Shown piece after piece: positions 16,213 to 23,708 of a stretch of DNA of 36,099 bases (positions within the stretch are counted from its first letter, which is position 1; each line of letters starts with the position of its first letter). Under the pieces are notes generated by a model that was not told the origin of the DNA, ran no database searches, and worked only from the letters and a program-made list of their open reading frames with translations. The DNA comes from an uncultured Muribaculaceae bacterium (GTDB lineage: Bacteria; Bacillota_I; Bacilli_A; RF39; UBA660). Position numbers and translations under genes: made by a program. Location: assembly GCA_964418205.1 (NCBI GenBank), contig CAYQKO010000001.1:1-36099 (forward strand), in the 5' to 3' direction.

Positions 16213-19200
16213 CCTTATCAACTCCTACCAACTTAACCAAACTAGAAGTCCCATTCTTAACATTCCAAGCATATTGATTACTTATTTTTTCACGATGATT
16301 CTTAGAAATATCAGAAATCTTAATAACACCTTGATCGACAACATTAGAACCTATCCACAAACCATTCACATTATTTACAGAAGATGTGTACCAAGCCTCA
16401 AACACATATTTCTTTAAAGAATAAACCTGATCAACATATACAAAGGAAACATTTGACATGCTAGAAACTTTATCTAATAATTTTTTAAATTTCAATTTAT
16501 CCACTGAATTCATAAACTTATCAACATTAATGATGAAAACCACTAATTCAAACTGTGTATTTAAAATACTATGATCAATAAAATTATCAAGACTATCTAA
16601 AAACCCATTTCCATTCGTAGCACAATAACCCTCAACATTTAAATTTTTTCCTTTAAATATCTGGCCTAAATCAATAACAACCGTGGAAATATTTTTCATT
16701 TTCTTGAACAATTGAAATAAAGAAGAAACAAATGGAATAATAGATTCAATATTTTGTGCGGAAAGAATACTTGCCTTAGCGGCCTTAAAATTAAACGTCG
16801 CAACACTCAAATTATTTTTATTAAGCCCAATTGGAACATGTTCCAAATCCATAGGAATTTCATCAATAAAATCAAAAGAAACTACTTCAGGCAAAACAGG
16901 AATCCTCTTTGGCTTATAAGTATTATGATTCAATAAATCACGAGACACCTCATTCACATAAGAAATAAGTTTGTCACTATCACAAACCGTGGCACATTGA
17001 AATTCATAAGCAATTTCCTTTTTAAATAAGCCACGTCCCTCAAAACTTGCCGGAAAAACATTACCAATCTTTCCTAAAAGTCCAACATAATCATCCTTAT
17101 TATTCATATCCATAACAAAAACATGATCAAAATTTCTAGTAAACCTACCAAACAAGCCACTAGAACTAGTAACCGTTAATATCATAATAATTCCATAACG
17201 TTTCCCATCACGAGAAATTTTTATAAAAATGTCATCCATATTAGAATAAGACTCTCTAAAAACATCTAAATTATTTAAAACAAAACATAATATAGGTATT
17301 TGTTCCCCAGTAGATTTACAATACGTACTATATTCCCCATTATAATCTGCAAACATTTTTTTTCTTAAACTAATCTCATTGAGCAAAAATGAAATCATTT
17401 TGGTTATTTTCTCATCATCCCCTTGAAAAGCTATATCAGCAACATGAGGAAGATGTCCAAACGCTCTTAACGATTCTGAGCCAAAATCAATAATATAAAA
17501 ATTTATTTGAGAAGTTGTATTAAGAATAGAAGCAGAGAAAATTAAAGATTTTAAGAACATTTCTTTTCCAACACCAGAAAGGCCATAAACAATTGTATTG
17601 CCAGTTTCATCTAAAGTTAATTTTAAAACACCCTGATATTGATTCGATGGATCATCATACTCACCAATAATAGCCTCAAAAGGTGCATGATCTTCATCTA
17701 CATGATATTTTTTGATGACTTTATCAAGATAAATAACTCCAGGAATATTATCAAACCACAATTGCTTAGATTTCAAATTTTCTTTTCTAGCTAAAGTACA
17801 TATATATTGCAAAACATTAGTTAACTGATCACCCTTACTCTCCAAAATTTTCTTTCCAAGCTCATTAGGAACATTTTTATAAGAATTCAAAAGTCGATCT
17901 ACAAAATCAATAGAACGATCATTTTGCTCTTCAACAATATCTTGAGGAATATAACTTGCACCAGCCCAACCAGATTGACCCAAAACGTAAACTTCATCCA
18001 TTCCAACTTGTAAATAGAATCGACCAGCATTTTTAATTAGTGCAGCATCTGGTTTTTTTAACATCTCACTACTATCAGATGTATTTTGTACCTTCAAACA
18101 AACACGAAATTTACTATTACTCCAAATTTGATCATTCACAACTCCACTAGGTTTTTGTGTAGCCAAAATCAAATGAACCCCTAAACTTCGTCCGATTCTA
18201 GCAGTACTAATTAAATTATCCATAAAATCTGGTTGTTGATTCTTAAGCTCAGCAAATTCATCACAAATAATAAACAAATGAGGCATTGCTTCTGTTAATC
18301 TACCTTCATGAAAAAACCTTTGATACTTATAAATATCCATAGTGCTCTCTCCAAGAATTTCTCGAGCTTCATTAAATCGAACTTGTCTTCTTTTCAATTC
18401 ACTATCTATACTAATTAAAGTACGATTTAACTCATTCTTATCAAGATTTGTAATCGTCCCAGCCAAATGAGGTAAATAAATGTTATTTTTAGCATTGGCA
18501 AAAGCACCAGCCAAACCTCCGCCTTTATAGTCAATTAAAATAAAAGAAACATCATTAGGGCTATAATTTAAAGCTAAAGATAATATATAAGTAATAATAA
18601 ATTCAGACTTACCAGAACCAGTGGTACCAGCAATCAGTCCATGTGGACCGTGTTTCTTTTCGTGCAAATCCAAATAAATAGGTTGTCCTAAATCATTTAC
18701 ACCAACTAACGAACGCAAGCTCTTGGTAGAATCATTTAATCTCCAACGATTCAACAAATTAAATTGTTCCACTTTTCCAATACGATACATTTCCAAAAAA
18801 TTAATCGATTCTGGTAAATTACGGCGATCAAATTCCATTTCAATAGGAATATTTGCCAAAACTCTAGCACAATTTATCATAGGATAATTTGTGTTACTAT
18901 CCAAAACAAAGTAAGTTTGATCTTGCCTATCGGGACCTATAGCTAAAATAGCAGAAGAATCACCACTAATATTAATAAAATCATTACATTCACTAGGCAA
19001 TCTCCTTAACCTAGCATCCCTGACAACCAAACTAAATCCCAAAGAAAGAGAACTATTTAAAATATTACTAATAATATCTAACTTACGAATACTAGGATAA
19101 TCATCCGTAAAAATAAGATAATAAGGTTTAAAAGTTTCAACACTTTTTGACTCATCACTATCAGATTCTTCTTTAGAAACCAATTCTTTTTCCTTATTCG

Positions 19201-21085: not shown

Positions 21086-21409
21086 ATGAACAAAACAGTA
21101 GGAATTATAGTAGATGATTTTACTTCAATCACAAATGAATTAAAGAGTAAAAAAGACGAAATTGATTCATCACTAAATGAATTGCGGAAAAAATTTTATA
21201 GCATCAAAGAATTAATCAATGATAATTCCATTCAATTCTTAATTACTTCTTTAGAAAAAGACATAAACTGCATAGAAGATATGAAAAGTAATAGCCAAGA
21301 AGAAATTGATGCACTAAACAAAGTAAAACAACAATATGCTATCTATTCCAAAAGTCTAGTTCAAGCTTACAATAACTTTAATTCAAATAGAGAGGAAGGA
21401 ATAAAATGA
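21086..21409 (+). CDS. 107-aa all-helical protein (WXG100/Lap-sized helical hairpin, no W-x-G motif)
   Basis: It has a GGGAGGA RBS and an ATGA stop/start overlap with the next gene. The sequence has heptad character on both sides of a central NDNS turn. It contains no Trp and no TM segment. Confidence 0.6.
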   Translation: MNKTVGIIVDDFTSITNELKSKKDEIDSSLNELRKKFYSIKELINDNSIQFLITSLEKDINCIEDMKSNSQEEIDALNKVKQQYAIYSKSLVQAYNNFNSNREEGIK

Positions 21410-22158
21410 ATAGTCAAAGTGGATGGATTGGTTTTAATGATGAAAAGGTTCAAGCTTTAATAAACCAAATAGGAAAAAATTATGAAGAGCTAGCTGATAC
21501 AATCATCGACGCATGGAAACCAATGGTTAATACCCTAGACCTGTATTGGATTGGGCCTAACCAGAAAAATTTTCTAAAAACACTAGCCAAAATGGTAAGT
21601 ACAAATTATAAAAATCTTGAAACTGTGGTAAGAGGTCTAGAAGAACAGATAATGGCAGATTATGAAAGCTACGTGGATTATGTAAACGAACAAAAATTTA
21701 GCATAAACGATGTTGAAATAGATAACAAATCACAAATCTCAGTTGAGGTAGAAATTCAAACAATAAATTCAGTTAACCTAGAAACCATGCTAACAGTGTC
21801 AGAAGAGTATAGTGGGGATAAGATAGGCTTAAATGTCAATGAAAAAGATAAAATAACAGCTGCTATACAGACATACTATGATGCCATTACTGACAAGTTA
21901 AATGAATTATTTAGTAATGTAACAGCAGAAGGTGCTTTCTTTGGAAATTCTGTGCCTGAAAGTATGAACGAATACATAATAAGTGGTAAGAATTACATGA
22001 ATTCAGTTCTTACATATATAGAAAGCATTATTAATGTTATTGATAGTTGTCAAGAAGGAAGTACTACATTCGAAGAAACAATTAAAGGAATAATTGATAA
22101 TGCAACAGAAGAAATCAAGGGTATGACTACAACTTCATCCAATGCATCTATATCATAA
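21406..22158 (+). CDS. 250-aa protein with an N-terminal WXG100-like domain and a second WXG-like hairpin (candidate fused tandem Esx protein)
   Basis: Residues 10-95 form a helix, then LDLYWIGPNQKNF (W-I-G at 21547..21555), then a second helix, as in EsxA. Residues 148-235 repeat the pattern around AEGAFFGNSVPESM (F-F-G at 21937..21945). It has a GAGGAAGGA RBS and no TM segment. Confidence 0.6.
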   Translation: MNSQSGWIGFNDEKVQALINQIGKNYEELADTIIDAWKPMVNTLDLYWIGPNQKNFLKTLAKMVSTNYKNLETVVRGLEEQIMADYESYVDYVNEQKFSINDVEIDNKSQISVEVEIQTINSVNLETMLTVSEEYSGDKIGLNVNEKDKITAAIQTYYDAITDKLNELFSNVTAEGAFFGNSVPESMNEYIISGKNYMNSVLTYIESIINVIDSCQEGSTTFEETIKGIIDNATEEIKGMTTTSSNASIS

Positions 22159-22210
22159 AAACAAAAAATAATTTTTTGTTTTTAAGAAAACACTTATAGA
22201 AGCGTTTTCT
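22157..22210 (+). terminator. Two tandem hairpins between the 250-aa and 91-aa genes (possible attenuator or weak terminator)
   Basis: The first is a 12-bp, almost pure A-U hairpin, AAAAACAAAAAA-taa-TTTTTTGTTTTT (22157..22183). The second is AGAAAACAC-n8-GCGTTTTCT (22185..22210, one mismatch). Neither is a classical GC-rich terminator. Confidence 0.3.
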
Positions 22211-22236
22211 TAAAAGGAAAAAAGGAGAATCAAAAA

Positions 22237-22512
22237 ATGGCAAGAATATCTTATTTAGAAAAACTATATGATCTCTTAGACGATATGTATGTAGTAAAAA
22301 GAAAATCATATAATTGTAATCCAACGATAAACCAGACAATAGCCTTAATGAATGAAGCATTAGTAATCAATAACAAAACTTGTTATATAGAACTAATAGA
22401 AGATGTAAATACAAAAAATAATACAAACATTAACTTATTAGAAACAAGAATAATACCAAGAATCGATAGAGAAATAGAAGAATTAGAAGAAGACGAAGAT
22501 GATGACGACTAA
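22237..22512 (+). CDS. 91-aa hypothetical protein with a poly-acidic C-terminal tail
   Basis: It has an AAGGAGA RBS. The C-terminus reads EIEELEEDEDDDD. It has no TM segment and belongs to no family I recognise. Confidence 0.55.
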   Translation: MARISYLEKLYDLLDDMYVVKRKSYNCNPTINQTIALMNEALVINNKTCYIELIEDVNTKNNTNINLLETRIIPRIDREIEELEEDEDDDD

Positions 22513-22526
22513 AGAAGGGGAAAAAT

Positions 22527-23708
22527 ATGAAATTTGATATTAACATAGGAACATTAAAGAACAGGTTAAACGATTTTCAATCTATAAAAGAAGAATTAGA
22601 AGAAAAATATTCCATATATTATTCAAGTGCAAAAAAAATTGAATATTGTTGGAACGACAATCTAACAAAAAGTTACATCGAATTACTAATAAAAAATGAA
22701 GCAAAAGTCAATAATTACCTACAATCCATTACAGATTATATAGAAAAAATTAAATCATTCATTTCCTTAATTGAAAAAACAATAGAATTAAACGAAGTAG
22801 AAGTTTCCTACAACATAGAAAATCAACCAAGATTCCAATTTAATGAAAACAAAATGAAAGAAGTACTAAATAAATTAACATCGCTGAAAAGCGAACTTTC
22901 AATTTGCAAAACGAAAACAAATACAAGAATAAGTGAAGCATCACATAATATTGAAAAAACAAACAATAACTATCAAAAAATGATAGAAAATATAGACAAA
23001 ATAAGTTCAAAATACACAAAAACAATCAATTTAATCTTAACAGAAACGGCCATTTTAAAAGAAAAGATAAATGAAATACCACCAAACATAATAACTCAAA
23101 ATAATTTAAAATACCAAGCAAATGAAAATGTTAATTTTAATGTAAAAGATTTTCCAATATTGACACCAGAAATATTTAATACAAACATAAATGAGAAAGA
23201 ATTAGCAAAAATAGCAATAGAAGAAATAGAGAAACAAAACTTCAATCTTGACAATCAACAAAAAGAAATAGAGAAAAATACCATAGATAACATAAAATCA
23301 AAAGATTTGAATGCCTATAAAACAAACACCAAAGAGGAAGAAGAAAAGGAAGAGGAAGAAAGAAAAAGAGTTGAATTTTCAAATAAGAAACCTGAATCAT
23401 TTAGTAATCCTACAAGTGACACGGAACCTCCTATCCAACAAAACACTATTTCAAATGAAGAAAGTGATATCATCTTCCCTCAATCAGAAAAAGAACTAAC
23501 CCCAATAGAGGAAACAAATATGAAATATGAAAATCAAAATAACGAAATCAATAAGAACCAAAACATACAAACAATAAGCCAAAAAGGCTTAGAAGATATA
23601 AAAATAAACTATACGGCTCCGAAAGATGTTGAAAATAAGAATATATCAATAGAAGAAGTGTCTCAAAATGATTTTAGAATTGAAATGAATACAGAGAAAA
23701 AGACCTAA
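22527..23708 (+). CDS. 393-aa protein with an LXG/WXG-like helical N-domain and a low-complexity N/E/K-rich C-terminal half
   Basis: It has an AGGGGA RBS. The N-terminal 190 or so aa are helical with a W-N-D turn (YCWNDNLTKSY, 22650..22658) where WXG proteins carry W-x-G. The C-terminal half is compositionally biased (EEEEKEEEERKR, NQNNEINKNQN) with no recognisable enzymatic motif. Confidence 0.6.
   Translation: MKFDINIGTLKNRLNDFQSIKEELEEKYSIYYSSAKKIEYCWNDNLTKSYIELLIKNEAKVNNYLQSITDYIEKIKSFISLIEKTIELNEVEVSYNIENQPRFQFNENKMKEVLNKLTSLKSELSICKTKTNTRISEASHNIEKTNNNYQKMIENIDKISSKYTKTINLILTETAILKEKINEIPPNIITQNNLKYQANENVNFNVKDFPILTPEIFNTNINEKELAKIAIEEIEKQNFNLDNQQKEIEKNTIDNIKSKDLNAYKTNTKEEEEKEEEERKRVEFSNKKPESFSNPTSDTEPPIQQNTISNEESDIIFPQSEKELTPIEETNMKYENQNNEINKNQNIQTISQKGLEDIKINYTAPKDVENKNISIEEVSQNDFRIEMNTEKKT

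Follow-up and report, generated by a model that had tools for sequence, protein, structure and literature searches.

p250, an essC-linked protein of an uncultured low-GC bacterium, is probably a natural fusion of two diverged WXG100 modules

The stretch of DNA analysed here (36,099 nucleotides (nt) of contig CAYQKO010000001.1, assembly GCA_964418205.1, from an uncultured, low-GC, gut-type host; hereafter the window) encodes p250, a protein of 250 amino acids (aa), beside the gene for EssC of a type VII secretion system (T7SS). p250 is probably a natural fused Esx pair, in which two diverged WXG100 (EsxA-type) modules are joined by a linker of ~48 residues. A fused pseudo-heterodimer of this kind had been proposed in the first-pass annotation of the same DNA, and the proposal is supported by the conservation of the family to which p250 belongs, by the WXG100-like character of both halves, by a confident structure model, by linkage to essC and by the absence of a canonical WXG100 protein. 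What the analysis supports is a strongly diverged, single-chain, two-hairpin variant of WXG100 that is linked to a stripped-down EssC system; we infer from it the antiparallel packing of the two hairpins, the secretion of the protein and a role equivalent to that of EsxA.

The p250 protein and conservation of its family

The translation of the open reading frame (ORF) at 21406-22158 of the plus strand agrees with the 250-aa product claimed earlier, and the two turn motifs read from it, W48-I-G50 (nt 21547-21555) and F178-F-G180 (nt 21937-21945), were both confirmed. The protein is acidic (pI 4.2), has a molecular mass of 28 kDa and contains no hydrophobic segment for a signal peptide or a membrane helix. 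With 250 aa it does not conform to the length of WXG100 proteins (~100 aa); module 1 is a helix-turn-helix hairpin with W-x-G at its turn, and module 2 is one with F in place of W. The gene and its elements, all on the plus strand, are as follows.

21406..22158, plus strand: p250 ORF, 250 aa, member of an unnamed ~245-aa family
21406..21690, plus strand: module 1, residues 1-95, with helix 12-47, the W48-x-G50 turn and helix 51-95 (AlphaFold2, hhalign)
21427..21438, plus strand: IGYN motif, I8-G9-F10-N11 (family conservation)
21547..21555, plus strand: W48-I-G50 turn, invariant in 69 family members and aligned on the canonical WxG
21670..21684, plus strand: residues 89-93, Y-V-D-Y-V (W-x-x-F-Q in the family), putative degenerate export-motif position
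21691..21834, plus strand: linker, residues 96-143, ending in G141-L142, with two short strands and two short helices
21835..22131, plus strand: module 2, residues 144-242, with helices 144-170, 185-213 and 220-242 (AlphaFold2, hhalign)
21934..21945, plus strand: A177-F178-F179-G180 turn, aligned on W-E-G of canonical WXG100
22060..22074, plus strand: residues 219-223, S-T-T-F-E (Y-x-x-x-D/E in 28/69 members), with E223 aligned on the WXG100 Asp of the PhixxxD motif

A word-indexed homologue search with p250 alone as the query returned p250 itself as the sole match. Exhaustive phmmer searching of 1.8 billion cluster representatives led to the identification of a family of 77 representatives at E<=1e-3, nearly all of them 235-255 aa long and matched over their full length at 18-29% identity. 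Conservation was counted in an alignment (A1) of 69 of these 77 representatives. The first turn, E-W-V-G-x-D-E, contains W48 and G50 in all 69 sequences and D52 in 68, and in the second turn A177 (66/69), F178 (67/69) and G180 (68/69) are followed by a conserved Q183. Being conserved in 69 aligned homologues, the turn motifs are more than chance, and both are under selection in the family. The N-terminal IGYN motif (I8 50/69, G9 68/69, Y/F10 67/69, N11 61/69) is likewise kept, W37 is among the best-conserved positions, and helix 2 of the first hairpin ends in W89-x-x-F-Q93-x-x-N96 (W in 67 members, F92 in 56, Q93 and N96 in 65 each). Further conservation was observed at the end of the linker (G141-L142) and at Y219 (64/69).

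p250 itself stands apart within the family, with N52, Q53, L57, Y89, Y92, V93, Q96 and S219 where the other members have D52, E53, E57, W89, F92, Q93, N96 and Y219, all conserved to 81% or more outside p250. Both turns have been retained despite this divergence. The third W-I-G triplet that had been pointed out at residues 7-9 is indeed present, but it can be dismissed as a functional WxG: W7 is replaced by M, A, G or N in the relatives and only I-G-(Y/F)-N is kept, the triplet being a coincidental part of the IGYN start.

Several members depart from the common pattern. Within the last ~10 residues, 35 of the 69 sequences carry a [KR]-W dipeptide, which is absent from p250. A remoter member of 241 aa (L054, G102:C5, 5572-6297; E 4e-21) has the first turn E-W-Y-T-P-E-G and the second A-F-L-G, so that the Gly of the first turn is not universal beyond the 69 aligned sequences. 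P0015, the only member with an extension, reaches 326 aa by a Gly/Ala/Val-rich C-terminal stretch of ~80 residues that is reminiscent of glycine-zipper membrane toxins, indicating that the double-hairpin module can carry cargo. With few exceptions the homologues extend over the full length, the short matches being either contig-end truncations or distant single-hairpin relatives. Among the latter, P0050 and P0066 (152-160 aa, E about 1e-5 to 1e-4) pair an A-F-K-G / G-x-G turn with a C-terminal E-E-A-W-x-x-Y-Q that resembles the end of module 1, and they may represent unfused relatives of the p250 family.

Likeness of each half to WXG100 proteins

Each half of the family was compared with a profile of 27 canonical WXG100 proteins (~100 aa) encoded in genomes of the window's class. 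The N half (residues 1-100) matched it over 90 columns (hhalign 92.3%, E 5.5e-7) and the C half (residues 136-250) over 83 columns (hhalign 82.5%, E 9.9e-6), the outcome that the separate profile check of the two halves had been meant to reveal. Reversed and column-shuffled control halves (hhalign P 0.001-0.57) fell behind the real halves by 3-5 orders of magnitude. In the hhalign register, the W and G of WXG100 are matched by W48/G50 in the first half and by F178/G180 in the second. The C-terminal Asp, present in 23/27 proteins of the comparison set, is matched by positions 93 and 223, with positions 89 and 219 four residues before it.

The same affinity is visible in the domain databases. 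WXG100 is the commonest weak Pfam match among the members (19/69, best E 1.7e-5), and TIGR03930 (WXG100_ESAT6) is the commonest NCBIfam match (20/69). The Pfam matches occur in either half, e.g. at residues 2-84 of P0078 and 15-94 of P0004, and at 150-221 of P0082 and 154-216 of P0023. Meanwhile the N and C halves of the family show a weak likeness to each other, which is in register (hhalign P 0.006) and fits the fusion of two different hairpins, not a recent duplication.

Structure model of the two hairpin modules

Single-sequence AlphaFold2 prediction of p250 was uninformative (predicted local distance difference test score, pLDDT, 38), while prediction with a 27-sequence alignment (A2) gave a model with a pLDDT of 83.3 and a predicted template modelling score (pTM) of 0.80. 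In agreement with the helix/linker/helix layout outlined in the first-pass annotation, the secondary structure of the model comprises two helical regions separated by a partly ordered linker, whose blocks have pLDDT values of 64-92. The C half, too, is modelled as the helical hairpin that had been predicted, with helices 144-170 and 185-242 arranged around AFFG; the AFFG motif lies inside a 14-residue loop, and the second helical segment is kinked at about 214-219.

As for the packing of the two halves on each other, a single confident model was obtained, from which a four-helix packing is deduced. The model implies that the two modules hold a defined mutual arrangement, since independently tumbling hairpins should not reach a pTM of 0.80.

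Export motif positions and a proposed mechanism

In EsxA of S. intermedius, as in other Esx dimers, the export signal is composite: one hairpin contributes its WxG turn, and the partner a hydrophobic-xxx-Asp motif close to its C-terminus. The D87A substitution in this signal abolishes the export of both EsxA and LXG toxins (PMC13355648). Esx homodimers possess two such pseudosymmetric signals, and heterodimers and EspB possess one (PMC13355648; PMC9811218); EspB is a single polypeptide with WxG and YxxxD/E (PMC9811218).

The corresponding positions of the p250 family differ between the modules. In module 2, residue 219 is aromatic in 65/69 members and residue 223 acidic in 31/69, both features occurring together in 28/69; p250 has S219 and E223. 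In module 1, W89-x-x-x-Q93 is found in 64/69 members, with Y89 and V93 in p250. The search for a C-terminal export motif conserved in homologues, recommended along with the original proposal, pointed to a putative export position: Y219 is nearly general, and the residue four positions further on aligns with the conserved Asp of WXG100. A strict YxxxD/E signal is nevertheless rejected, as it is only partly conserved and its Tyr is absent from p250.

According to the mechanism proposed here, the two hairpins would pack on each other within one chain, antiparallel, which is how hairpins are arranged in Esx dimers. The linker of ~48 residues would have just the length required to return along a bundle of ~65 Å, connecting the open end of hairpin 1 with that of hairpin 2, and the outcome would be a single-chain pseudo-heterodimer. 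At one end of it, the W48-x-G50 turn of module 1 would lie beside Y/S219-x-x-x-E223 of module 2 and form a canonical composite signal; at the other, the F178-x-G180 turn would lie beside W/Y89-x-x-x-Q/V93 and form a degenerate signal with neither Trp nor acid. Such a layout would resemble that of EsxA-EsxB heterodimers and of EspB, with one functional signal each, and the asymmetry between one canonical and one decayed end is just what a pseudo-heterodimer would be predicted to display. EssC would then recognise and export p250 in place of homodimeric EsxA, which is absent from these genomes.

A further-reaching version of this scheme, in which the p250 family is the obligatory Esx component of a minimal T7SS (EssC and a YukD-like protein, no EssA, EssB or EsaA) and acts as a pseudo-heterodimer with one canonical and one decayed signal, is put forward tentatively, with the odds somewhat against it.

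Locus organization and conserved linkage to essC

The genes surrounding p250 in the window are listed below.

15952..16221, minus strand: 89-aa YukD/EsaB-like protein, no Pfam match; in every locus essC is followed by a conserved homologue of ~84 aa
16202..20779, minus strand: EssC (TIGR03928, 957 bits, above cut-off), divergent from the p107-p250 operon
21086..21409, plus strand: p107, 107-aa helical partner, whose TGA stop overlaps the p250 ATG (ATGA)
22172..22223, plus strand: RNA stem-loop (-18.7 kcal/mol, z -5.85), AU-rich, in the 78-nt gap after p250
22237..22512, plus strand: p91, 91-aa helical protein; 78-83-aa homologues follow the family member in most loci
22527..23708, plus strand: p393, 393 aa, with a W-N-D turn, a WXG100-like N-terminus and a variable low-complexity tail

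A gap of 306 nt separates the minus-strand pair of essC and the YukD-like gene from p107, p250, p91 and p393 on the plus strand. No membrane segments were found in p107, p250, p91 or p393, and the small neighbours (95-107 aa and 78-91 aa) have no Pfam match to the Lap families DUF3130 and DUF3958. The stem-loop lacks a U-tract, and its 3' arm abuts or enters the ribosome-binding site of p91; it could uncouple the expression of p107-p250 from that of the downstream genes.

Family members were located on eight contigs from other samples or genomes (L001, L004, L006, L041, L042, L043, L055 and G102:C5). Their common gene order is EssC (~1520 aa), a YukD-like protein of ~84 aa, a 95-97-aa protein, the family member, a protein of ~78-83 aa, a W-N-D protein of 250-520 aa, DUF4176 (Ltc) and a large effector. 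The essC gene is visible in 6/8 contigs (L001, L006, L041, L043, L055 and G102), with or without the 95-97-aa gene before the family member; the contig L042 opens with the family member, and L004 with a cut gene just upstream of it, these being contig ends that leave essC outside. Homologues of p107 (95-97 aa) stand immediately upstream of the family member in 5/8 contigs, and the upstream 97-aa gene is absent from G102. Between the window and L001, EssC is 49% identical and p250 about 25%. In L043 (2501-3975), two tandem paralogues of 246 and 239 aa directly follow essC and the yukD-like gene, and the ~95-aa partner is shifted downstream.

Two of the neighbours bear a resemblance of their own to WXG100. 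The p107/p97 partner is weakly WXG100-like (P 0.0011), without WxG. In the W-N-D family, with homologues in L004, L006, L041, L042, L043 and L054, the N-terminal ~105 aa are WXG100-like (hhalign 77%) and are followed by an Asn/Glu-rich, highly variable tail of 80-370 aa; these proteins may constitute a second substrate class of the system.

Genome content and distribution

The host genome of p250 (G000; 1.2 Mb, 91% complete, 29.5% G+C) yielded no match to PF06013 at E<=10, none to LXG at E<=1 and no YukC/EssB Pfam match, and its recognisable machine parts are EssC and the YukD-like protein only. In genome G468, where LXG is lacking as well at E<=10, the sole WXG100-like match lies in the homologue of p250, in its C half. 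These findings fit the earlier suggestion that p250 replaces a missing esxA.

Among 150 genomes sampled from the class of the window, EssC was found above the cut-off in 18. In this sample the p250 family was found only in the window's own GTDB family, where it occurs, besides the host genome, in 2 of the 13 other genera sampled; within the window's own genus a partial match was obtained in 1 of 24 other species. One of the copies from these other genera has an in-frame TAG (L049, G076:C2:24244-24891); no EssC was found at E<=1e-30 in its 98% complete genome, and the gene probably survives in decay from a T7SS locus since lost.

Although their EssC proteins are closely related, the T7SS loci of this bacterial family, L050-L053 (G165, G148, G102 second loci) included, follow at least four designs: the p250 type, one with a 219-aa double-WxG protein, one with helical genes of 62-76 aa only, and one with a 94-aa W-S-G protein. 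The 94-aa W-S-G loci also encode very acidic small proteins. The idea that every EssC locus of this group uses a double-length Esx was rejected, given that G165 and G148 have only 62-76-aa helical genes after yukD, and G102:C2 and G148:C2 a 94-aa WxG protein or none. The double-length solution is thus recurrent within the bacterial family, not universal.

Comparison with known systems

EsxA/YukE-type WXG100 proteins of T7SSb share with p250 the helix-turn-helix layout with a central W-x-G and, as a putative export position, hydrophobic-xxx-acidic late in helix 2; they are also acidic, devoid of a signal peptide and encoded beside essC. They differ in being ~100 aa long and forming homodimers (S. 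aureus 2VRZ/2VS0, S. intermedius EsxA), whereas p250 consists of two non-identical modules in one chain. It differs further in its F-x-G second turn, in the Q (V in p250) at the export-Asp position of module 1 and in falling below the Pfam and NCBIfam thresholds.

EsxA-EsxB (ESAT-6/CFP-10) of T7SSa combines two different hairpins into one four-helix bundle with one composite signal, to which one partner supplies WxG and the other YxxxD/E (PMC13355648), an asymmetry that p250 shares. That pair, however, is made of two gene products and is served by an actinobacterial EccC, while p250 is one chain and its EssC has FHA domains. EspB, the fused PE-PPE-like protein of mycobacterial ESX-1, resembles p250 in architecture only, as a heterodimer-type substrate in a single chain with WxG, YxxxD/E and a long inter-module loop (PMC9811218). 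It is unlike p250 in its 460 aa, long C-terminal region and heptamers, and in belonging to another phylum and machine subtype; no PE/PPE homology was detected in p250, which has no PE or PPE Pfam match of its own, and neither domain ranks among the 25 families that its 69 aligned relatives match most frequently.

The 219-220-aa double-WxG proteins of a sister genus (L044/L045) likewise have two WXG-type hairpins in one chain and are encoded in a stripped-down T7SS locus, where they immediately follow an essC whose product shares 37% identity with the EssC of the window. In contrast to p250, both of their turns are true W-x-G and their C half, at 36-46 bits, scores above the Pfam WXG100 cut-off; the locus order (yukD-like, essC, double-WXG) differs from that of the p250 loci as well. 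Membership of p250 and these proteins in a single family was considered and is not demonstrable (hhalign P 0.011 for a partial alignment, no shared words), despite the 37% identity of the EssC proteins. On sequence grounds, the p250 family is a separate and more diverged one, undetected by Pfam.

LXG domains of T7SSb toxins are, like p250, helical WXG-superfamily modules of ~200 aa flanked by small helical genes and DUF4176/Ltc. p250 differs in having no PF04740 match and no toxin domain, its helical modules filling all 250 aa.

Weighing of the evidence

Several observations weigh against p250 being a fused Esx pair. The protein itself has no Pfam or NCBIfam WXG100 match at E<=1, and the best member of the family reaches 27.0 bits, just below the Pfam WXG100 cut-off of 27.3. 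A search of the PDB with hidden Markov models (HMMs) of each half returned designed helical bundles only, with B. anthracis EsxB (4j7j) as a non-significant match (E 0.36). Sequence searches of the PDB with p250 and with the family profile likewise returned nothing but coiled coils, designed or viral, so that by sequence p250 has no structurally solved relative. Comparison of the p250 model with the PDB by Foldseek gave no match at E<=1e-3; the top, non-significant matches were single-chain designed four-helix bundles and ferritin/Dps with TM-scores of 0.2-0.35, and with scores this low a compact canonical bundle is not demonstrated. At the putative export positions, p250 has lost Y219, W89 and Q93, and the acid at 223 is present in only 31 of the 69 aligned members. 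Finally, sister T7SS loci of the same bacterial family do without a double-length protein. p250 may be the best candidate for the core substrate of the system; the ~97-aa neighbour and the W-N-D protein are conserved alongside it and are also WXG100-like, and any of the three other conserved helical proteins of the operon could share or hold this role.

The best surviving alternative, though an unlikely one, is that p250 serves as a toxin-less, LXG-like carrier or stalk, which would form together with p107 and p91, in the part of Lap1/Lap2, a rod-shaped targeting complex escorting the 393-aa W-N-D protein or the 1393-aa effector. The layout of the operon, including DUF4176/Ltc and the large effector, does recall lap-LXG-ltc modules (PMC13355648). 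LXG domains of ~200 aa have a WXG100-like first hairpin, the C-terminal extension of P0015 indicates that the double module can carry cargo, and a weak LXG match (E 0.0019) is found in the 219-aa protein of the sister genus, in its N half. LXG (PF04740) itself, however, is not matched in p250, the host genome or G468, nor is it among the 25 families that the 69 members match most often; a real LXG protein of 215 aa from the same phylum bears no relation to the family profile (P 0.11). The C half, moreover, aligns with the entire WXG100 hairpin and bears a turn motif of its own, something absent from LXG domains, and the family gene stays beside essC while the downstream cargo genes vary.

It is still less probable that p250 remains in the cytoplasm as a helical scaffold or chaperone that holds substrates or regulates EssC, its likeness to WXG100 reflecting ancestry only. 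The loss of several family-conserved residues in p250, including Y219 of the putative export motif, would agree with such a function, as would the weak DivIVA-like matches in six members. Yet unless the machine recognises p250, it is difficult to account for the invariant WxG turn and for export-motif positions that align in each of the two modules, and p250 is acidic, free of a signal peptide and encoded beside essC, as known substrates are. The known T7SS chaperones (EspG, EsaE, Ltc/DUF4176) are, besides, globular proteins, and these loci already possess a gene for one of them, DUF4176.

That the WXG100 likeness is an artefact of helical low complexity, p250 being an unrelated coiled-coil neighbour of essC, is very improbable: the generic helical bundles returned by the PDB HMM and Foldseek searches and the many spurious weak coiled-coil Pfam matches point that way, but the reversed and shuffled controls fall orders of magnitude short of the real halves, full-length alignments put W/F-x-G on W-x-G and the +4 position on Asp in both halves, and the linkage to essC is conserved across contigs.

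Significance of the p250 family

T7SS subtypes a to j have all been reported with a TsxA/EsxA of ~100 aa that acts as a homo- or heterodimer, with no mention of fused forms (PMC11217815), and toxins are exported only if EsxA is itself exported by way of its composite WxG + PhixxxD signal (PMC13355648). Tandem, double or two-domain WXG100 wording was not found in the literature searched by phrase. As the p250 family lies below the Pfam and NCBIfam thresholds, its loci look Esx-less in annotation.

Read as a fused Esx pair, the family provides a natural experiment on the number of signals that EssC needs, on the export of a bundle in its folded state and on how far a T7SS can be pared down. If the minimal-T7SS version proposed above is true, export needs neither the assembly and disassembly of a dimer nor two symmetric signals, and p250 would offer a monomeric, genetically simple substrate for dissecting cargo recognition by EssC. 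The p250 family is found only in uncultured, small-genome, low-GC Bacillota; hence any role in these organisms is most likely in competition between bacteria.

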